A DNA stretch of 38,868 bases from Minisyncoccia bacterium (GTDB taxonomy: Bacteria > Patescibacteriota > Minisyncoccia > UBA6257 > GWB1-50-10), in assembly GCA_049997835.1 (NCBI GenBank), contig JBEKSI010000002.1, forward strand, positions 1 through 38,868. The letters run 5' to 3'. Position numbers and translations under genes: made by a program. The notes beneath the pieces are model-generated. The model worked only from the letters and a program-made list of their open reading frames with translations. It was not told the origin of the DNA and did not search any database. Shown piece after piece: positions 2 through 11,396 of the stretch. Every line of letters begins with the position of its first letter. The first letter of the stretch is position 1.

Positions 2-1372
2 ACGAGCATTTACTTCACCATCTACGGGCGAAACCAGGAAGAACTTTCCCGCATGGAAAATGAGCTTGTGAATCTACTGGAAAGCAAATTGGTTTACGTG
101 AAACCGGCGCTTTTCAAACAAAAAGAGGGTTTAACTTCCGTTTTCCCGCTTGGCAAGGATGAATTGGAAATCAGAACGCCGCTCAATACCGGTCCGGCTT
201 CGTCCATTTTTCCTTTTGTCTCGCCAGACCTGACTTCGGAAAACGGGATTATGTACGGAGTGAACATGCACAATAATAGTTTAGTGATTTTCGACCGGTT
301 CTCCCTGGAAAACGCGAATATGGTCGTTTTTGCCAAGGCGGGCTCCGGAAAATCCTATGCCACCAAGCTCCAAATCCTGCGTTCCCTAATGGTGGGCACG
401 GATATCATAGTTATTGACCCGGAAAACGAGTACCAAAATCTCGCGAACGCGATAGGCGGCAGTTATTTCAAAATATCTCTCACCTCCCAGAGTCACATCA
501 ATCCTTTTGATATACCGATTATCCCAGAAGGCGAGGAGCCAGCTGACGTTTTCAAATCCCACATTTTAAATCTGACCGGGCTCATAAAGCTAATGCTCGG
601 TGAAATCAAACCGGAGGAAGAATCTCTTCTGGATAGAGCCATTACTGAGACCTACGCCTCACGCGACATCACGGCCGAAAATTTCGGTTCCATAAAAGAA
701 TTGGCCCCGCCGCTTCTGGAGGATCTCCAGATCATCCTTCAGAACACCGAGGGTGGCCGGACGCTCGCCCAACGGCTGGATAAATTCACCCACGGTTCCT
801 ACGCCGGCTTCACGAACGCGCCCACGAACGTTGATATTAAGAACCGCCTGATTGTTTTTTCCATCCGCGATCTGGAGGAAGAACTTCGGCCCATCGCGAT
901 GTATATCGTCTTGAACTTTATTTGGAATCTCATACGATCGGAATTAAAACAAAGAATGATGGTGATAGATGAAGCCTGGTGGATGATGAAATACAAAGAC
1001 AGCGCCTCCTTCCTGTTTGGTTTGGTCAAGCGCTGCCGCAAATACTATCTGGGTGTCACAACCATCACCCAAGACGTGGACGATTTCTTAAAATCCGAGT
1101 ATGGTCGGCCGATTATCTCGAACTCCTCCATTCAACTGCTTTTGAAACAATCCCCCACGAGCATTGGGGCAGTCGCGGCCGCTTTTGATCTGACGGAGGG
1201 CGAGAAAACATTTCTACTTGAGGCCGGGGTGGGTGAGGGACTTTTCTTCGCCGGACTGAAACATATCGCAATGCGGGTTATCGCTTCCTACACCGAGGAC
1301 CAAATTATCACCACAAACCCCGAACAAATGCTTGAGATAAAGGGGCTCAAAGAAAATGAACAGCGAATATAA
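2..1372 (+). CDS. VirB4/TrbE-like type IV secretion ATPase, C-terminal part (5' end runs off the window)
   Basis: The frame is open from nt 2, with no stop before the first Met at 53, so the gene is truncated by the window edge. Walker A 'AKAGSGKSYATK'. Walker B 'MMVIDEAWWMM', the hhhhDEAW signature typical of VirB4/TraC/TrbE. 'TTITQD' lies downstream. Confidence 0.75.
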   Translation, partial: TSIYFTIYGRNQEELSRMENELVNLLESKLVYVKPALFKQKEGLTSVFPLGKDELEIRTPLNTGPASSIFPFVSPDLTSENGIMYGVNMHNNSLVIFDRFSLENANMVVFAKAGSGKSYATKLQILRSLMVGTDIIVIDPENEYQNLANAIGGSYFKISLTSQSHINPFDIPIIPEGEEPADVFKSHILNLTGLIKLMLGEIKPEEESLLDRAITETYASRDITAENFGSIKELAPPLLEDLQIILQNTEGGRTLAQRLDKFTHGSYAGFTNAPTNVDIKNRLIVFSIRDLEEELRPIAMYIVLNFIWNLIRSELKQRMMVIDEAWWMMKYKDSASFLFGLVKRCRKYYLGVTTITQDVDDFLKSEYGRPIISNSSIQLLLKQSPTSIGAVAAAFDLTEGEKTFLLEAGVGEGLFFAGLKHIAMRVIASYTEDQIITTNPEQMLEIKGLKENEQRI

Positions 1373-1700: not shown

Positions 1701-2381
1701 ATGAGATCCCAAACCCAAAAAATCTTTTTAACCGCAGGTTTATTTTTCGCGGCTACTTTCTCAGTGATGGGCCAAACGCAAAATACCCAGGTGATAATCA
1801 CTTGGCGCGCGAACAGTTACTTCCCGGCCGATTACGCCGGCAAGGCCTCTGCCGCGCCCGGGGCAGCGCTCACAGCCTCAGCTGAACTGATTTCGGCCGG
1901 CAAATTACAGGATATCGTGAACGCCAACATAAACTGGTCTTTGAATGGAAATTTGATAGATGGCGGCACCGGATTAAAAACGGTTTCTTTCACTGCCGCC
2001 GCCCAAAACCAGGGTTATGAGATCTTAAATGTATCCATAAACACCTCAAAAGGCGTTCTGGAGAATTCAACAAGGATTCCAGTCAGCAAGCCCGAGGTCG
2101 TTTTAAGTTTTCCTTACCCCCAAAAATCTGCGAAGGCCGGCGGCCAGATCACCGTCTCAGCCATTCCTTTCTTTTTCAACGTTCTTTCGTTCGACGATCT
2201 GAAATTTGACTGGCGGATAAATAACGAAAAGGTCACGGTGGATGGGAATAAAATCACCGCGAACATAGGCACACCACAGTCGGATTTTCAGAACTCAGTT
2301 CAGATCCTCGCAACTGTCCAGAACTCCAAAAACCTTCTTGAGTTCGCAAGAGGGACGCTTATCTTGCCTATAACTCAATGA
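1701..2381 (+). CDS. Secreted protein of unknown function (N-terminal signal peptide)
   Basis: 226 aa. Signal-like N-terminus 'KIFLTAGLFFAATFSVMGQ'. Beta-rich composition. Its TGA stop overlaps the next ATG (ATGA). Confidence 0.55.
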   Translation: MRSQTQKIFLTAGLFFAATFSVMGQTQNTQVIITWRANSYFPADYAGKASAAPGAALTASAELISAGKLQDIVNANINWSLNGNLIDGGTGLKTVSFTAAAQNQGYEILNVSINTSKGVLENSTRIPVSKPEVVLSFPYPQKSAKAGGQITVSAIPFFFNVLSFDDLKFDWRINNEKVTVDGNKITANIGTPQSDFQNSVQILATVQNSKNLLEFARGTLILPITQ

Positions 2382-3601
2382 GGAGAATTTTTTCATTAAA
2401 ATATCTTCTTATTTTTATGATCTTCTTGGGATTGGTTGTTTTCTTTTCGGGGGGCCGACCCGTCTCTGCCGAAGATATTGTAAACGTGGACTTTCCGTGT
2501 CCTTCCGGAAACTGCCAGCAACCAACGGATATTCCTTCTTATTTGAACACCGTATATAAATTCGCCGTGGGCATTTCCGGCCTTCTCGCGCTGGGGATGA
2601 TAGTTGCGGGTGGGGTTTATTACACCGTTTCGGCGGGGAACAGCGGGCGGCAGGGCGAGGCAAAAAGCATGATAACTTCGGCCATCTGGGGCTTGGTTCT
2701 TCTTTTTGCGTCTTACTTGATACTCAACACCGTGAATCCGCAGATAACCAAACTGGGGTTAGACCTAAGTGGCGCTACGCCAATCTCCTCAACATCAGCA
2801 ACTAGCTCTGTAATTAATTCTACTATTTGTCCGGATTTCTCCACGATGCCAACCTTCCCGAATAATTATCAAAAACTCACAACGCCGGATTCCAATTGCG
2901 GTTATAGAAAAATAGTAACACCCTCCCAACTTTCCGTCGGAACGCCAAGCCAATATTATGAGGAAACGGTTACAATCCCACCCAACTCAACAATTTGGCA
3001 ATACCCTTATTTCATAGAATCCGACGGGTCCTCAACTGCAAAATGCTTGATCTTTGCCTACAAAGAATCTGATTCAAGCTCAACTACTTTTATAACGCTT
3101 AGAGATTCCATCAGTAAGTGTACCATGCAAACACAATCAATCGGCGCTAGCGCAAATCCAACTTTGGCTCCAACTTGCAATCCCAGCGACCCGCTCCCCG
3201 CAAACACTCTTACCAATGAGGATGCTGTCCAGAATCTGAATGGCTTTGGCATAAGCGTTACCTCATCCGGTAACTGTAGTGACCGATGCTCCTCAAATTG
3301 TACCAGTCTCTGGGGGATACCGACTAGAGTTATAAATACTCATCTAAAATACATATCTGATCATTGTGGGAGTAATTGCACTGTCATCGTTACTGGCGGC
3401 ACGGAGGTCGGGCACCAAAGCCATGGGCCAGGTAAACCTGTCGTGGACCTATTCTTTAATCCGGCTCTTGCTGAATATTTGAAAAATTCATATAAATCAA
3501 ATATTGACGCTCTTTGCACCACCCCCCAAGACCAACAATATCGGATTAATTGTAATTACGATGAAACAGTGAGACATCTTCATGTCCAATTCGGATTATA
3601 A
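2378..3601 (+). CDS. T4SS pilin-like (TrbC/VirB2-like) N-terminal module fused to a Cys-rich C-terminal domain with a Zn-peptidase (LAS/M15-like) motif pair
   Basis: Signal/TM, then two hydrophobic helices separated by a short polar loop: 'FAVGISGLLALGMIVAGGVYYTVSAGNSGRQGEAKSMITSAIWGLVLLFASYLILNTVNP'. This is the layout of CPR 'T4SS pilin' family proteins. The C-terminal ~280 aa contain about 16 Cys. 'VTGGTEVGHQSHGPGKPVVDL' gives H-x7-D and the terminal 'RHLHVQF' gives H-x-H. Confidence 0.6.
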   Translation: MRRIFSLKYLLIFMIFLGLVVFFSGGRPVSAEDIVNVDFPCPSGNCQQPTDIPSYLNTVYKFAVGISGLLALGMIVAGGVYYTVSAGNSGRQGEAKSMITSAIWGLVLLFASYLILNTVNPQITKLGLDLSGATPISSTSATSSVINSTICPDFSTMPTFPNNYQKLTTPDSNCGYRKIVTPSQLSVGTPSQYYEETVTIPPNSTIWQYPYFIESDGSSTAKCLIFAYKESDSSSTTFITLRDSISKCTMQTQSIGASANPTLAPTCNPSDPLPANTLTNEDAVQNLNGFGISVTSSGNCSDRCSSNCTSLWGIPTRVINTHLKYISDHCGSNCTVIVTGGTEVGHQSHGPGKPVVDLFFNPALAEYLKNSYKSNIDALCTTPQDQQYRINCNYDETVRHLHVQFGL

Positions 3602-3604
3602 ACC

Positions 3605-4759
3605 ATGAAACCGATCATAAAAATAAGTTTAATCACTCTGATAATAATCGTCATCGGGTTGATTATTTATTTCGTTTGGTCGGCTCTCGCGCCGGCGCCG
3701 GAAAACCCGGCTCCGGGTAGTGCGGGGAATCTTCCTACCGCCTCGAGCACAAGTAGTTCCACAAGCGAGCAAAACCAGACCAGCCAGCCGGAGCAGCAAA
3801 ACGGGAGTGCCGTTCCGACCTTGGAAAAAATTTCCGAAAATCCCGTCTTTGATTTTTGGGTAGACTCGCAAACCCAAGAAGTTTATTATCTGGATCCCGA
3901 CGGCCGGATTTTCTCCGCTAAAAAGGGGCAGGACATTCAGATCACCCAGCAAAAACTGAACGCCCCGAATTTCATAAAAGTTTCACCAAATGGCCAGCGC
4001 GTGCTTATGGCCTTCGGCGCCCCCCGCTCGCCCCAGTGGGGCATATTTGACGTTATTGACGGCGCCTGGCGCCCGCTGCCGGGAGACATACAAAACGCCG
4101 CCTGGGGGACGGATAGCGGTAATCTTATCGCTTTCGTGAAGAACGGCGGCAGCATAAATCTGTCAAATATCAATATCTCTCAAAACCAACCGAGTTATAA
4201 GATTATCGCGAAGGATATGCGTTTTGAAGACGTAAAAATGGACTTTATCCCTCCTGATAACATGATTATCCAGGAAAATCCTTCGGGGGATTACGCGGGG
4301 CGGGCCTGGAATCTGAATTTGAAAAATCTTTCAATTTATCAGCTTTTCTCCCCACAAGGCGGGCTCACCATGAAACTTTCTACGGATAAGAACATCTTGT
4401 TTGTTTTTTCGGCGGACGGCGGCTTCAGAATTTTAAACTCCGCCAATCTGAATTTGACCACGCCTCTGCCTTTTTCCACCCTGCCATCTAAATGTTCTCC
4501 CGACTCATTTCTTATTTATTGTTTTATGCCGACAGACGACGGGTTTAAAAATTCCGTGCTGCCGGACGATTACATTAAACAGGGAATATACACTTCCGAT
4601 ATCCTATATAGGATAAACCCGGGGACAGACGAGGTTCTTTTAATCCCCCTGCCGAAAAACGCCGGGACTATTGACGCCCAAAATCCCGTCGCTTCAAACG
4701 GCGCGCTCTATTTCATAAACAGGTACGATAAATCTCTCTACTCGCTTAGCTTGGAATGA
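3605..4759 (+). CDS. N-terminally anchored extracytoplasmic protein with TolB/PD40-like beta-propeller repeats
   Basis: TM 'ISLITLIIIVIGLIIYFVWSAL', then an S/T/Q-rich linker. Repeat-like strings 'DPDGRIFSA', 'VSPNGQRVLMAF' and 'DSGNLIAFVKNG' resemble PD40 blades. Confidence 0.5.
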   Translation: MKPIIKISLITLIIIVIGLIIYFVWSALAPAPENPAPGSAGNLPTASSTSSSTSEQNQTSQPEQQNGSAVPTLEKISENPVFDFWVDSQTQEVYYLDPDGRIFSAKKGQDIQITQQKLNAPNFIKVSPNGQRVLMAFGAPRSPQWGIFDVIDGAWRPLPGDIQNAAWGTDSGNLIAFVKNGGSINLSNINISQNQPSYKIIAKDMRFEDVKMDFIPPDNMIIQENPSGDYAGRAWNLNLKNLSIYQLFSPQGGLTMKLSTDKNILFVFSADGGFRILNSANLNLTTPLPFSTLPSKCSPDSFLIYCFMPTDDGFKNSVLPDDYIKQGIYTSDILYRINPGTDEVLLIPLPKNAGTIDAQNPVASNGALYFINRYDKSLYSLSLE

Positions 4760-6542: not shown

Positions 6543-7907
6543 ATGGATACTAATCAACTTTGGCAGGCAGTACTCGGGGATGTTGAACTCCAAATTTCCC
6601 GTCCAAATTTTTTAACGTGGCTCAAGAACAGCCAATTATTGGATAAGAACGAAAAAGAAGGTTTGGTTTTGGTCGGCTTGCCGAACAACTTCGCCAAAGA
6701 GTGGGTGAAGAGTCGCTATCATAAAATTATTTTAAGCTCTTTAAGGAACTTGGACGGCTCAATTAAAAACATTGATTACACCGTTTCAAACCAAAACTCC
6801 GTTATTGCTCCCCTTAAAAAACATAAAACCGTTCAGGAAATAAAATTGCAATCTTCCCTCATAGAACTCCGGATAGATCCTAAAACAAATCTGAATCCGA
6901 AATATCTTTTCAATTCTTTTATTGTCGGCTCATCCAACGAACTTGCTTACGCCGCCGCCCAAGCGGTTGTAAAAGACGTCGGGAATAAATACAATCCGTT
7001 TTTTGTCTATGGCGGCGTTGGTCTGGGGAAAACCCACCTTATCCAGGCATTGGGGAACGAGATAACGAATGTTTATAAAAACTCCGTGAATGTTCTTTAT
7101 GTTTCCTCGGAAAAATTCATTAATGACGTGGTCTGGGCCGTGAGAAATAAAAGAATGGAGGATGTGAAAAAAAAATACAGAGATATCGATGTTTTGATAG
7201 TGGACGATATCCAATTCATCGGCGGTAAACCGACCACCGAACAAGAATTCTTCTACACGTTCAATACTCTTTATGAAAACAACAAACAGGTCATAATTTC
7301 ATCCGATCGGCCGCCTTCCGCCATACCTACTCTTGAAGAAAGGTTACGTTCTAGATTTGAGGGGGGAATGATAGTGGATATTTCTTACCCTGATTATGAG
7401 ATGCGCCTGGCGATACTTAAGATGAAGGCTCAAAAAAGCGGGGTTTTTGTGGAGGAATCGATCTTGGAACAAATCGCCGCCCAGGTACAAAAAAACATCC
7501 GGGAGTTGGAGGGGGTATTGAATAAGGTTGTTTTTTACGAACAGTACAAGAATGAGAAAATCACCAATAAAAAACTTGAGGAGATAATCAACGAAGCGGT
7601 TCGGGTGCTCCCGAGAAATATCACCGCGAATGATATTGTGAGAGTGGTGGCTGATTTTTTTGAAGTGCCGGCGCAAGACATCACCAACCGGGGAAGAAAA
7701 CAGGGTGTGGTGGAACCCCGACAGATCGTTATGTATTTAATGCGGGATGTTTTGAAGCTTTCCTATCCTCATATCGGGGAAAAAGTCGGTAAAAGGGATC
7801 ACACCACCGCAATCCACGCCTGCGAGAAGATAAAAAAAGAGATTAATCAAAACCCGGGGTTGAATCAGAAAATAATATTAATAAAAGAGAAATTGTATAG
7901 GGTGTAG
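6543..7907 (+). CDS. dnaA: Chromosomal replication initiator DnaA
   Basis: 'MDTNQLWQAVL' N-terminus, Walker A 'GGVGLGKTHL', Walker B 'LIVDDIQF', and the C-terminal DNA-binding signature 'KRDHTTAIHA'. The track start at 6489 is probably an extension. Confidence 0.95.
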   Translation: MDTNQLWQAVLGDVELQISRPNFLTWLKNSQLLDKNEKEGLVLVGLPNNFAKEWVKSRYHKIILSSLRNLDGSIKNIDYTVSNQNSVIAPLKKHKTVQEIKLQSSLIELRIDPKTNLNPKYLFNSFIVGSSNELAYAAAQAVVKDVGNKYNPFFVYGGVGLGKTHLIQALGNEITNVYKNSVNVLYVSSEKFINDVVWAVRNKRMEDVKKKYRDIDVLIVDDIQFIGGKPTTEQEFFYTFNTLYENNKQVIISSDRPPSAIPTLEERLRSRFEGGMIVDISYPDYEMRLAILKMKAQKSGVFVEESILEQIAAQVQKNIRELEGVLNKVVFYEQYKNEKITNKKLEEIINEAVRVLPRNITANDIVRVVADFFEVPAQDITNRGRKQGVVEPRQIVMYLMRDVLKLSYPHIGEKVGKRDHTTAIHACEKIKKEINQNPGLNQKIILIKEKLYRV

Positions 7908-8094
7908 AATACTTGTGGATATTATGTTGATTTTTTGGATGAATTTTTGGGATATTTTTTAAAACTCATAATTTAGCCGGTAAAAGATTTAAATTATCAA
8001 CAACTCTTCCCACCCCACAAAACATAAAATACCTTTTAATTAAAACAAAAAACGTGATTTAATAGACTTATACACACCTCCTACCACTACTACT
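7908..8094. other. Candidate oriC: AT-rich dnaA-dnaN spacer with DnaA-box-like 9-mers
   Basis: TGTGGATAT at 7914-7922 (reverse complement ATATCCACA, 8/9 to TTATCCACA). TTATACACA at 8068-8076 (8/9). Weaker TTTGGATGA and TTGGGATAT copies lie in the tandem 'ttttTGGATGAattttTGGGATAtttttt'. Confidence 0.45.
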
Positions 8095-9201
8095 ATGAAA
8101 CTAATAATACTAAGAACTAACTTAATAGATGGGTTGAACTCCATGGAATGCGCGATTAGTGAGAGTTTGAATCTACCCATCTTAAAAAATATTCTAATTA
8201 AAACTAATGGGGATGGTATTGTTTTTACCTCTACCAACCTTGAATTGGCGGTAGAATGCGTTATTTCCGGCAAGGTTATAGAAAAGGGTGAAATAACAAT
8301 CCCATTTTCCATATTTAATTCCATAATTAAAAACCTTAATTCTGAAAGGATTAGTTTAGAGGAAAAAAACAAAAAAGTGGTAATAAGCACGGATAATTAT
8401 GAGGCGGTTATTCAAGGACAGGATTCGAAAGAATTCCCAATAATTCCCCCCATCGCGAATAAAAACAAAAAACTCAAAATAAACACCAATGATTTTAAAG
8501 AAGCCCTGGGAAGCGTGATAATCGCCGCCCAATATTCCGACATTAGGCCCGAGATAAGTGGAGTTTTTTTAAATCACCTAGATAACACTTTTACTCTCGT
8601 CGCGACGGACAGCTTCCGTTTATCCGAAAGAAAAATAGACGCTAAACTTATTCAAACCGACTTAGATGATTTTTCCGCGATAATACCCCTCAAAACCGCT
8701 TCGGAATTAATGAGGTTTTTCGGTAAAGACGAGGTTTTAGAGATTTCCATTGACCCAAATCAAATCTTATTCAACACTAAAAACAAAAAAATAATTTCCC
8801 GGCTTATAGACGGAAACTTCCCAGATTATAAAGCAGTGGTGCCAAAACAAACAAAGAACGAAGCGGTGGTTGATAAGAACGAATTGATTAACGCCCTGAA
8901 ATTAGCCAGCGCTTTTGTTGGTCGGACGAACGATATAACTCTCAAGATTGGGGATGGGAAAAAAACCATGGAAGTTTATTCCGTAGACAGTTCTTTAGGG
9001 GAGAATTGTTATAAAATACCCATTAAATTGAAGGGTGAAAAATTCTCTCTGGTTTTTAATTGGAAATATTTATTAGACGGCCTGAAGATTTACAAGGGTC
9101 AGGAGGTAATCTTGGGAGTTAATTCGCCGGACCGGCCGGTAGTGATAAAAACACTAACCGAACCACTGTTGGTCTACGTTGCGATGCCCATCAAGAGTTA
9201 G
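8095..9201 (+). CDS. dnaN: DNA polymerase III beta sliding clamp
   Basis: 368 aa immediately after dnaA. 'LVATDSFRLSERK' and 'LIDGNFPDYKAVVP' are typical clamp motifs. Confidence 0.9.
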   Translation: MKLIILRTNLIDGLNSMECAISESLNLPILKNILIKTNGDGIVFTSTNLELAVECVISGKVIEKGEITIPFSIFNSIIKNLNSERISLEEKNKKVVISTDNYEAVIQGQDSKEFPIIPPIANKNKKLKINTNDFKEALGSVIIAAQYSDIRPEISGVFLNHLDNTFTLVATDSFRLSERKIDAKLIQTDLDDFSAIIPLKTASELMRFFGKDEVLEISIDPNQILFNTKNKKIISRLIDGNFPDYKAVVPKQTKNEAVVDKNELINALKLASAFVGRTNDITLKIGDGKKTMEVYSVDSSLGENCYKIPIKLKGEKFSLVFNWKYLLDGLKIYKGQEVILGVNSPDRPVVIKTLTEPLLVYVAMPIKS

Positions 9202-11396
9202 TGTAGGAACCAATTTAAGATTCCCGTTTCCCAATTTATGAACTGCGAGTCGTCGGCGGGATTTTGAGGGAAATCTCCCAAGGGGTTATTTTTATCCACG
9301 TAGTACAGAATGGAATGAACCTGGCTTTTTTGGTTTATCCCAACGGGGGTATAAATGTACTGCCCGTTTAACATGGGTTTATTTGAAATGTTAACTGTAT
9401 CCGGATTGGAAAAACTTTCGGGTGAGTAATTGTTTATCACTTGTTTTAAAAAATCGCTCCAAATCGGCACGGCGGCCAGAATACTTGTTCCCTTTCTTAT
9501 CATGGGGGTATTGTCATTGTTCCCGGCCCAAACGCCGACAGTGATGAAAGGGGTGTATCCCATCGCCCACGCGTCCCGATAGTCGTTAGTTGTTCCGGTT
9601 TTAAGCGCCACATCGTAGCCGGGGAAAACCGTGATCCCCAAACTATTTTGAAATAATCCGGAGCGCAGATCTTTATCCGAAAGTATTTTATTTATCATTT
9701 GAGGGTATTGAGGATCAATGACCTTGGTTGAATCATCATGATACGTTTCAAGAACATTTCCCTTACTGTCGCTTATTTCAAGAATGCTGGTTTGATTGTG
9801 GCGCACGCCCTCTTGGGCGAAGGTGGAGAAAGCGTTGACTAAATCCACCAACTTAACCTCGCCGCCGCCCAAAACCAAAGACAAACCGTATCTCCACGGA
9901 TCGTTCAGGGTGGTGATTCCGAAACCGTGGGCGTTATTAAGAAAAGCTTTCAACCCCACTAAATATAACGTCTTTACTGCGGGAATATTTATTGATTGAG
10001 CGAGAGCTTGGTCCATTTGAACCGGCCCCTGGAACGGTTCAAAATCCTGGGGGTGGAAACATTCGCTGGAGCTTGATTCCTGGTTGTTGAAATCAAACGT
10101 GGCCGGGCAGTTGGGATCGTTTGAAACGAATTCCGTGGGCACGTCAAACAAGATCGTCTGAGTCGGGTAGCCCAATTGGAAAGCCGTCATATAAGCGAAG
10201 GGTTTGAGCGCCGAGCCCGGCTGGCGAAGGCCCTGGATGGCAACGTTAAAATTCCCCCCTATATCCGTATCAAAATAATTTCTAGAGCCCACAAGGGCCA
10301 GAATCTGGCCTGTTTTAGGGTCTTGAGCCACCAAGCTGGCGTTTTTCCCGTCATAAAGCTCCTCGTTTCTCTTGGCGCCGCTCTCCACCGCCTTTTCCGC
10401 GATTTGCTGCATACCCCAATCCAAAGAAGTTGTGACCCTTAACCCCCCGTTTAAAACCTCATCCTCGCCGTATTTATTAATAAGGTAATCCTTCACCATC
10501 AACGAAAAGTGCGGGGCCTTGATTATCCCCAATGAAGGCGGGGCAAAAACCAACTTTTCTTTTTTGGATTTATCGGATTGTTCTTTGGAAATATAACCCA
10601 ACTCAAACATCTTATCCAAAATATAATCTTTCCGAGTTGTTAGGTCGTCAGTATGGCTGCCCCAGGGAGAATAATAACTAGGTGCCTTGGGAAGTCCCGC
10701 AAGAAGGGCCGACTCGGCCAGATCCAAATCCTTTGCGGATTTGTTGAAAAACGTCTGACTTGCCGCTTCAACGCCGTAGGCGTTTGAACCATAAGGAACT
10801 TGATTGAGGTAAAGGCTCAAGATCTCATCCTTGGAATATTTAGATTCAAGCTCAATCGCTAGAACCAATTCCTTTATTTTCCGGGTGATGGTCTTTTCCG
10901 GCGAAAGAAAAACATTTTTTGCCAGTTGCTGGGTGATTGTTGAACCGCCTTGGGAAAAACTCAGTGTTTTAATGTCAACCCATAGGGCCCTTAGAATGCC
11001 CTGCCAATCAAAAGCCGGCCGGGTATAAAAATTGGCATCCTCGGCTGATATGGTGGCACGTCTGAGATTTTCGGGGATATCACTGAAAGGAACAACCGTC
11101 CTTTTTTCCTCGCCATGGATCTCATAAAGGAGTGTTTTCCCGGTCCGGTCGTATATTTTTGTGGATTGGCTGGCTTCGTGAGTTTCAAACTGGTCGGGTG
11201 AAGGGAGATTTTTTATGAGAACGACGGTGTAAATAACACCCAAACTTAAGAAACTTAAACTGATAATGGAGCCGGATAAAAGAGCGGAGATAAAAAAACG
11301 TTTTCTTTTTTTAGACTTTCTAATCACTTTGTTAATTCTATATTTTGATTTATCAGTAATCAAACCCCAACCCTGCGTATTTGTAGCACTAAACAA
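9198..11396 (-). CDS. Class A penicillin-binding protein (bifunctional glycosyltransferase/transpeptidase)
   Basis: GT51 motifs 'EDANFYTRPAFDW', 'GGSTITQQLAKN' and 'RKIKELVLAIELE'. Transpeptidase motifs SxxK 'SALKPF', SxN 'SIN' and 'KTGTT'. N-terminal TM anchor. Confidence 0.9.
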   Translation of the reverse strand: MFSATNTQGWGLITDKSKYRINKVIRKSKKRKRFFISALLSGSIISLSFLSLGVIYTVVLIKNLPSPDQFETHEASQSTKIYDRTGKTLLYEIHGEEKRTVVPFSDIPENLRRATISAEDANFYTRPAFDWQGILRALWVDIKTLSFSQGGSTITQQLAKNVFLSPEKTITRKIKELVLAIELESKYSKDEILSLYLNQVPYGSNAYGVEAASQTFFNKSAKDLDLAESALLAGLPKAPSYYSPWGSHTDDLTTRKDYILDKMFELGYISKEQSDKSKKEKLVFAPPSLGIIKAPHFSLMVKDYLINKYGEDEVLNGGLRVTTSLDWGMQQIAEKAVESGAKRNEELYDGKNASLVAQDPKTGQILALVGSRNYFDTDIGGNFNVAIQGLRQPGSALKPFAYMTAFQLGYPTQTILFDVPTEFVSNDPNCPATFDFNNQESSSSECFHPQDFEPFQGPVQMDQALAQSINIPAVKTLYLVGLKAFLNNAHGFGITTLNDPWRYGLSLVLGGGEVKLVDLVNAFSTFAQEGVRHNQTSILEISDSKGNVLETYHDDSTKVIDPQYPQMINKILSDKDLRSGLFQNSLGITVFPGYDVALKTGTTNDYRDAWAMGYTPFITVGVWAGNNDNTPMIRKGTSILAAVPIWSDFLKQVINNYSPESFSNPDTVNISNKPMLNGQYIYTPVGINQKSQVHSILYYVDKNNPLGDFPQNPADDSQFINWETGILNWFLH

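Follow-up and report, generated by a model that had tools for sequence, protein, structure and literature searches.

How does a type IV secretion system (T4SS) get through the cell wall when its operon carries no VirB1-like lytic transglycosylase? This question is raised by a locus at the start of contig JBEKSI010000002.1 from a Minisyncoccia bacterium (Patescibacteriota; GenBank assembly GCA_049997835.1, 594 kb in 52 contigs, 94.9% complete), of which positions 1 to 38,868 of the forward strand were analyzed (referred to as the window). Patescibacteria account for much of bacterial diversity. Within the T4SS operon, the gene at 2378..3601 encodes a pilin module followed by a long Cys-rich extension, referred to here as the pilin fusion. 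We propose that this protein is probably a membrane-tethered, extracytoplasmic zinc peptidoglycan peptidase of the T4SS that stands in for VirB1. The case is built from the predicted fold of its C-terminal domain, the conservation of a putative metal site, and the repeated occurrence of the domain beside pilin modules and VirB4.

The pilin fusion is 407 aa long, outside the ordinary pilin size of about 100 to 150 aa, and we therefore file it as a fusion containing a pilin module and not as an ordinary pilin. Its features are as follows:

2378..3601, + strand: whole gene, 407 aa, with signal peptide, T4SS_pilin hairpin, Ser/Thr linker, middle beta domain, and predicted LAS-fold domain
2378..2470, + strand: residues 1-31, signal-peptide-like N terminus ending in the residues VSA, with a putative cleavage site (hydropathy, sequence)
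2540..2731, + strand: residues 55-118, match to PF18895 (T4SS_pilin) over two hydrophobic helices (Pfam, hydropathy)
2756..2827, + strand: residues 127-150, Ser/Thr-rich linker after helix 2, of low confidence (predicted local distance difference test score [pLDDT] below 50 at model positions 12-18; model, sequence)
2828..3166, + strand: residues ~151-263, middle beta-rich domain (alignment, model)
3167..3598, + strand: residues 264-407, predicted LAS-fold (MepA/hedgehog/DD-peptidase-like) domain (model, fold searches)
3395..3415, + strand: GGTEVGH, residues 340-346, including E343 and H346 (alignment)
3422..3448, + strand: H349-x7-D357, proposed zinc ligands 1 and 2 (alignment, sequence)
3563..3583, + strand: E396-x3-H400-x-H402 on the last strand, with H402 the proposed zinc ligand 3 (alignment, sequence)

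The start codon of the gene overlaps the stop codon of the gene upstream (ATGA). Hydropathy gives a signal-like window at residues 1-29 and hydrophobic helices at about 61-84 and 99-119, the loop between the two helices holds R and K, and two cysteines (C41 and C46) follow the signal-like N terminus. The PF18895 match is above its cut-off (E 3.9e-9; 36.9 bits against 26.6) and scores 41.4 bits in a profile search of the genome, and the sole NCBIfam match to the 407-aa protein is a weak one to a pilin-like family from a Mycoplasma integrative and conjugative element. An initial annotation of this DNA had put a two-helix pilin module at nucleotides (nt) 2528-2753, an interval that contains the Pfam match, and about 280 extra residues after it, where we count 281 beyond residue 126. 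It had overestimated the cysteines of this extension at about 16; there are 12, and 14 in the whole protein. The motifs that it quoted are all present and start at nt 3275 (CSDRCSSNC), nt 3365 (CGSNC), nt 3389 (VTGGTEVGHQSHGPGKPVVDL), and nt 3572 (RHLHVQF). H349 (nt 3422), D357 (nt 3446), H400 (nt 3575), and H402 (nt 3581) lie exactly where it had placed them, and the H-D spacing is indeed x7, one residue above the classic x6.

Predicted fold and active site of the C-terminal domain

An AlphaFold2 model of residues 256-407, made with a 139-row alignment of homologs (A1, defined below), has a mean pLDDT of 94.5 and a predicted template modeling score of 0.87. When the model was compared by VIA-align with 48,161 Protein Data Bank (PDB) representatives, the best match was MepA (1tzp_A; Z 8.6, root mean square deviation 2.9, 125 aligned residues), followed by the N-terminal domain of Sonic hedgehog (ShhN; Z 7.5 and 7.2), Drosophila Hedgehog (6.7), VanX (5.7), LdcB (5.5), the Streptomyces albus zinc DD-peptidase 1lbu (5.1), and VldE (5.1). 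The rest of the top 14 consists of VanXYg, DacB/LdcB, VanYB, the endolysin LysB4, VanXYc, and the T5 L-alanoyl-D-glutamate peptidase, and the first unrelated entry appears at rank 15 with a Z of 4.0. Entries among these 14 other than 1lbu, 2vo9, 1r44, and 1u10 we take to be of LAS type. Those four, 1u10 being MepA, are named as LAS enzymes in the literature (PMC4102407).

Foldseek likewise placed MepA first (1u10; E 0.012, probability 0.99), with 1lbu, VldE, and Shh after it. The ESM Atlas model of the protein compares to clusters carrying Peptidase_M74, M15_3, and M15_2 at template modeling scores of 0.50-0.73, a range that also takes in Actinomycetota clusters named peptidoglycan-binding or D-alanyl-D-alanine carboxypeptidase-like. 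The C-terminal domain is thus confidently predicted to take the LAS (MepA/hedgehog/DD-peptidase) fold, and the LAS/M15 reading proposed in the initial annotation agrees with the high-confidence model, the first 14 PDB matches, and the best Foldseek match.

Homologs of the domain are numerous. With residues 130-407 as the query, a word-indexed search yielded 31 proteins at E<=0.001 out of 1,429 candidates, the window's own protein included, and an exhaustive HMMER search with residues 256-407 against 1.84 billion representatives yielded 743 matches at E<=0.001, of which 140 reach E<=1e-10 and 8 reach E<=1e-30. Judged by its modeled fold, the domain appears to define an unannotated LAS-fold family of 743 clusters at the first of these thresholds. 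The exact motif GGTE.GH is present in 139 of 174 collected proteins. Among the 35 that lack it, 19 have close variants keeping the E and the H (AGTE.GH, GGAE.GH, GGSE.GH, and GGVE.GH), 2 match the regular expression outside the motif region, and 14 have no match to the loose pattern.

Alignment A1 consists of the window segment and 138 other proteins bearing GGTE.GH. Its rows were picked on that motif; residues outside the motif are informative, and the four residues singled out at the outset are conserved in these homologs. D357 is present in all 139 rows, H349 in 138, and H400 in 134; H402 is present in 127 and replaced by Asp in the remaining 12. The motif pair is thus no accident of a single sequence. 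Also conserved are C300 (136/139), C308 (137/139), T309 (138/139), and C334 (127/139). A majority branch, to which the window protein belongs, carries GH-x2-H-G-x-G-x4-D together with the terminal H-x-H. A minority branch (e.g., P0026-P0031) has GH-x5-H-x2-G-x-K-x-D, with the classic H-x6-D, and a terminal E-x2-H-W-D, whose Asp aligns with H402 of the window protein; its members are P0026-P0031, P0143, P0158, P0160, P0169, and P0171 and the proteins at loci L033, L034, L037, L040, and L041.

The conserved residues can be tentatively placed on known LAS sites. An hhalign pairing with MepA (3.8% probability, not significant) sets GTEVGHQSHGPGKPVVDL against MepA RFNGGHASHQTGLD-VDI, so that H346 falls on MepA H110, H349 on H113, and D357 on D120, with one extra loop residue. 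GGTEVGH aligns with GGHAS of E. coli MepA, GHQSH...D resembles GHASH...D of the same enzyme, and on the last strand RHLHVQF of the window protein stands against AHMHVRL (MepA H209 and H211). H400-L-H402 lies on this last strand (model strand 146-150), and model residue 147, which is H402, is five residues before the structural alignments end at MepA 216, human Shh 187, 1lbu 202, and VanX 189. Provided that these last five residues are free of gaps, as this mapping from range ends assumes, H402 would fall on MepA H211, Shh H182, 1lbu H197, and VanX H184. We take these to mark the third zinc-ligand position of each enzyme, and the MepA positions were read from its sequence.

In Shh, the zinc ligands are H141, D148, and H183 and the catalytic base is E177 (PMC6027127), which is positioned by H181 (PMC4102407). 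The spacing of E396-x3-H400-x-H402 equals that of Shh E177, H181, and H183. The published LAS motif consists of H-x(3-6)-D plus H-x-H (PMC3927764, PMC6027127). Of its first part the His and Asp are present and conserved in the pilin fusion, at a longer spacing, and the H-x-H of the later strand is present as H400-L-H402. By sequence comparison, H349, D357, and H402 are putative zinc ligands, and E343/H346 and E396/H400 are putative site residues.

The region between the pilin module and this domain (residues 127-275) starts with the Ser/Thr-rich linker and continues as a beta-rich unit that is common to 14 other proteins among the 173 collected homologs (window's own excluded). Y194, W207, P210, Y211, C223, and C248 are invariant in the resulting 15-row alignment, and the signature of the unit is a conserved Y, W-x2-P-Y, and two Cys. 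A model of residues 127-275 from the 15 rows has a pLDDT of 76.4 (86-93 in the core). VIA-align and Foldseek searches with it gave no fold match (best Z 2.8 and best E 2.1, respectively), which does not imply a novel fold.

The operon and the distribution of the domain

The pilin-fusion gene is translationally coupled inside an operon of VirB6-like, PrgI, TrsD, and VirB4 genes beside dnaA. The window contains the downstream half of this operon, in which the pilin fusion is preceded by three of the features below and followed by the fourth:

2..1372, + strand: C-terminal 456 aa of a VirB4-like ATPase (CD1110 family, E 7.4e-94; NCBIfam), whose gene starts on contig C38
1356..1691, + strand: 111-aa membrane protein, overlapping the end of virB4
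1701..2381, + strand: 226-aa secreted-type protein
3605..4759, + strand: 384-aa protein with an N-terminal anchor, last gene of the operon

The last residues encoded on contig C38 of the same assembly overlap the first of the window, which places the N-terminal part of VirB4 on C38, and the upstream half of the operon is C38:1-5069 (locus L046). There, a 657-aa polytopic protein has a weak TrbL/VirB6 match (E 0.0046, below cut-off), and a 308-aa protein, a PrgI/VirB3-like protein (31.4 bits; cut-off 27), and a TrsD-like protein are also encoded ahead of the VirB4 N terminus. A frameshift in VirB4 near C38:4640 was considered, but two genes, TrsD and then VirB4, account better for the change of frame there. 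After VirB4, the order is the 111-aa membrane protein, the 226-aa secreted-type protein, the pilin fusion, and the 384-aa anchored protein. No family was found for the 111-aa and 226-aa proteins in Pfam or NCBIfam. The 384-aa protein belongs to a Patescibacteria-specific family (Atlas neighbors score 0.97-0.98), PD40 is found on 15-16% of the members of the neighboring Atlas clusters, and the relative L043 encodes a homolog downstream of its LAS gene. Convergent with the operon and next to it are jag (R3H), yidC, rnpA, and rpmH, followed by dnaA. The locus corresponds to the origin-proximal, relaxase-less T4SS that has been described for Patescibacteria (PMC12102498). Among the sequencing runs listed for this stretch there was none of RNA; the sole run that contains it is of DNA and may be the source of the sequence itself.

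The initial annotation had noted that the operon contains no VirB1-like lytic transglycosylase, and consistent with this, PF01464 (SLT) and PF05257 (CHAP) have zero matches each in the whole 594-kb assembly at its 94.9% completeness. The LAS domain is single copy in the genome. A class A penicillin-binding protein with Transgly and Transpeptidase domains is encoded at 9201-11396 of the window; the cell therefore makes peptidoglycan. PF18895 has five matches in the genome, namely the pilin fusion and four tandem short pilins at C5:7287-8796. These four open reading frames, of 143, 128, 126, and 84 aa, are far from virB4, and the array is flanked by a 438-aa membrane-anchored protein and a 437-aa membrane protein.

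The initial annotation had presented a peptidase fused to a pilin as something unusual, and this did not hold within the family: of 138 homologs of the domain, 108 have a T4SS_pilin match in Pfam at E<=0.001, some of these matches being below the 26.6-bit cut-off. No Pfam family was found in 27 of the 138, several of which are short fragments. Two homologs (P0029 and P0031) carry two PG_binding_1 repeats, one (P0159) carries SLT, and weak matches to the 3D domain occur in two pilin-bearing homologs (P0069 and P0075). The presence of peptidoglycan-binding and peptidoglycan-cutting partners argues for the wall as the substrate.

A sample of the phylum comprised 401 genomes, this one included, and the domain was found in 4 of them with the single-protein query and in 15 with a 12-row profile (A2), in one copy each. 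For the 14 other copies we inspected neighborhoods of at most 19 kb. Seven of these genomes (L032, L035, L036, L038, L039, L042, and L043) have VirB4 within 9 kb of the domain, and in five of the seven neighborhoods the LAS gene is downstream on the same strand, three times directly adjacent. This recurrent site beside VirB4 supports a role in the secretion machine. Pfam found T4SS_pilin in 8 of the 14 copies (one of them weak) and nothing in 3.

Several relatives have architectures of their own. The LAS genes at L035:9220-10665 and L043:7600-8901, both directly downstream of VirB4, encode PASTA, an acidic low-complexity region, a membrane segment, and then the LAS domain, with no pilin module; a wall-binding domain would not be expected N-terminal to the membrane segment, as PASTA is in these proteins. 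The 777-aa protein at L039:7972-10305 (G178), also downstream of VirB4, has a large N-terminal region, T4SS_pilin, the LAS domain, and a C-terminal SLT, that is, two predicted wall-cutting activities on a single pilin scaffold. At the head of the T4SS cluster in L036, the 1,203-aa protein at 6897-10508 (G324) has the LAS domain at residues 199-331 and long repeats matched by MgtE_N. P0159/P0305 is an SLT plus LAS-domain protein without a pilin module, and one member of its cluster is labeled as an "archaeon" metagenome-assembled genome.

Proposed mechanism and competing explanations

We suggest that the pilin fusion would be exported through Sec, after which the pilin hairpin would be held in the membrane with both ends outside, a topology for which the signal peptide, the basic loop between the helices, and the Cys-rich extension argue. 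The extension would then be extracytoplasmic and disulfide bonded, with the LAS domain carried on a flexible linker and the small beta domain. In this domain, H349, D357, and H402 would bind Zn2+, E396 or H400 would activate water, and H346 and E343 would line the site. The enzyme may cut peptide stems or cross-links of the producer's own peptidoglycan around the assembling T4SS and may thereby do the job that hydrolases of the VirB1, PrgK, or CwlT type do elsewhere. MepA, the best structural match, is an endopeptidase of D-Ala-mDAP (diaminopimelic acid) cross-links.

A number of observations weigh against this proposal. The Z of 8.6 for MepA barely exceeds the level that VIA-align calls common, and Foldseek gave no match at E<=0.001, its E-values being weak. 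At the sequence level, the only Pfam family that the window protein matches at E<=0.1 is the pilin, the domain drew no Pfam match in 11 homologs at E<=1, and the C-terminal domain of the window protein had no match in NCBIfam. A phmmer search and two profile searches against PDB sequences returned transmembrane noise or nothing, and no LAS protein. Aligned by hhalign, the domain family reached a probability of 3.8% with MepA and 5.3% with a 14-sequence MepA alignment, a shallow profile given that the 120 listed MepA relatives share at least 72% identity. The C-terminal domain also had no match to PF03411, PF01427, PF02557, PF08291, PF13539, PF05951, or PF01085. As no significant profile relation was found, we treat the domain as an unclassified LAS-fold branch and not as a member of M74 or M15.

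The site itself leaves further room for doubt. The invariance of G340, G341, T342, E343, G345, and H346 in A1 is circular, since the rows were chosen by GGTE.GH. Only 83 of the 139 rows keep E396, another 11 have Asp there, and the x7 spacing of H349 and D357 lies one residue outside H-x(3-6)-D. That H349, D357, and H402 form a single metal site in three dimensions is a prediction from motif comparison and from the range ends of the structural alignments. As to the role in secretion, VirB4 is absent from the stretch in 7 of the 14 relatives (three of these being contigs of 2.9-12 kb), three M23 peptidases encoded elsewhere in the genome could serve the T4SS instead, and a domain present in 15 of 401 sampled genomes is not a general solution.

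The same architecture can be read in other ways. One is that the protein is a minor pilin that polymerizes with the short pilins, so that a peptidase on the pilus or its tip would cut the wall of a host or prey rather than that of the producer, which we consider unlikely. The pilin module is a bona fide T4SS_pilin match, the four tandem short pilins could form a shaft while there is only one long fused copy, and in pili of the F type the pilin termini face outward. Such T4SSs have also been described as possibly pilus forming and as essential for epibiotic growth (PMC12857230, PMC10633639). Polymerization is an assumption, however, and a 281-residue appendage poses a steric problem in a helical filament. 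Moreover, directly downstream of virB4 the LAS domain also occurs behind non-pilin anchors, either PASTA plus a transmembrane segment or a plain transmembrane segment (L035, L043, and L038), and a tether therefore fits better than a filament subunit. A related version, in which a minor pilin built into or capping the T4SS pilus carries the peptidase outward to cut first the producer's wall and then that of the host, is to our mind about as unlikely, or slightly more so. If true, the pilus-borne peptidase would provide a physical route of secretion or uptake between a wall-bound epibiont and its host.

The extension might instead be a pro-region that is cleaved off at pilin maturation, which would free a soluble peptidase and a pilin of normal size. 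C-terminal processing is known for some VirB2/TrbC pilins, and the low-confidence, Ser/Thr-rich linker after helix 2 would be a suitable place. We identified no cleavage motif in the protein, however, and the fusion is kept in 108 of 138 homologs, which points to selection for the linkage and is silent on cleavage; we give this explanation a slim chance. Slimmer still is the chance that the LAS-like domain is a noncatalytic binder of peptidoglycan or of a host ligand, in the manner of Hedgehog acting as a ligand or of LytM factors that are catalytically silent. In its favor are the atypical H-D spacing and the partial conservation of E396, and catalysis is a prediction only; degenerate LAS proteins do exist (PMC8416486; Drosophila Hh, PMC6027127). 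Known silent members, however, have lost ligands, Drosophila Hh having H-X6-T and H-X-Y (PMC6027127). In the family described here, the three putative ligands and the second His are kept in 127 to 139 of the 139 rows.

Very little probability, finally, attaches to a housekeeping wall-remodeling peptidase for which the pilin-like hairpin is just an anchor with no role in secretion: the LAS enzymes MepA and LdcB are housekeeping and half of the relatives have no VirB4 in the stretch, but the gene is translationally coupled within the T4SS operon, in 7 of 14 relatives VirB4 is no more than 9 kb away, against an estimated chance of about 2% for a random gene in a genome of about 0.8 Mb, and the anchor is a T4SS-specific module.

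Relation to known systems and significance

The best structural match, E. coli MepA (MEROPS M74, PF03411, 1TZP/1U10), has in common with the pilin fusion the G-H-x-S-H...D and the last-strand H-x-H-V. Both proteins contain Cys, and both are extracytoplasmic, the pilin fusion presumably so. MepA differs in its x6 instead of x7 spacing and shows no significant sequence relation. It is also soluble and periplasmic, is 274 aa long, lacks a membrane hairpin, and is not linked to secretion. The hedgehog/DD-peptidase family (ShhN, 1LBU, and M15A) shares the predicted fold, and the E-x3-H-x-H spacing is identical to that of Shh, but these proteins have H-X(6)-D where the pilin fusion has H-X(7)-D, and their profiles PF01085 and PF08291 had no match. 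In the relatives P0029 and P0031, PG_binding_1 precedes the catalytic domain, the same order as in 1LBU.

Compared to the PF18895 pilins of Patescibacteria, the pilin fusion belongs to the same Pfam family and shares the signal peptide, the two-helix layout, and the virB4/dnaA neighborhood. The described pilins and the four on C5 are short, whereas the pilin fusion has 281 extra residues with an enzyme-like domain. The analogs of VirB1 (PrgK of pCF10, TraG of pIP501, and CwlT; PMC12102498) are likewise encoded in T4SS operons, membrane anchored, extracytoplasmic, and wall cutting, the last of these being a prediction for the pilin fusion. They use a lytic transglycosylase or muramidase plus CHAP or NlpC/P60, whereas the pilin fusion would use a LAS fold and a pilin-type anchor, and Pfam found no SLT, CHAP, or NlpC/P60 domain in it. 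By this comparison, the pilin fusion would be a functional analog of VirB1-type hydrolases and not a homolog.

A precedent of a kind exists in "Candidatus Southlakia epibionticum". Table S2 of PMC10633639 lists a DPAM assignment of "Hedgehog/DD-peptidase" at residues 951-1105 of SEML1_0007, and SEML1_0006-0019 are called a T4SS in the same paper, a range into which the number of SEML1_0007 falls. This protein differs from the pilin fusion in having more than 1,100 residues and no pilin annotation in its Table S2 row, the comparison being one of annotations only. Thus, a LAS-type domain in a Patescibacteria T4SS cluster is already on record in a supplement.

According to the passages of PMC12102498 used here, VirB2-like pilins occur in 1,948 assemblies, pilin arrays exist as well, and most Patescibacteria genomes with VirB2 homologs lack VirB1, from which it was suggested that pilus biogenesis may not need VirB1. 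The same passages list as essential in S. epibionticum the homologs of peptidase and lysozyme encoded right after virB4, and the fusions that they discuss are of VirB3 and VirB4 only. The pilin array and its essentiality have also been described (PMC12857230 and, for S. epibionticum, PMC10633639). The origin-proximal T4SS is essential in the sole species tested, and its function has been called completely unknown (PMC11665869, PMC10633639). A pilin-LAS fusion was not found in the passages and listings of the literature searched, a search that covered neither whole papers nor the supplements of PMC12102498. This suggests that, while the T4SS of Patescibacteria is known, a LAS-type wall hydrolase on a pilin module is apparently new.

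In lineages that have the fusion, a pilin-fused wall peptidase is a concrete candidate for the missing wall-cutting activity, and it may explain how a T4SS crosses the wall without the usual wall-cutting enzyme. The LAS-fold family offers clear predictions of catalytic residues. The wider question on which the pilin fusion bears is whether a real pilus is built by these monoderm cells or whether pilin-like hairpins serve them as general-purpose scaffolds that carry envelope enzymes.

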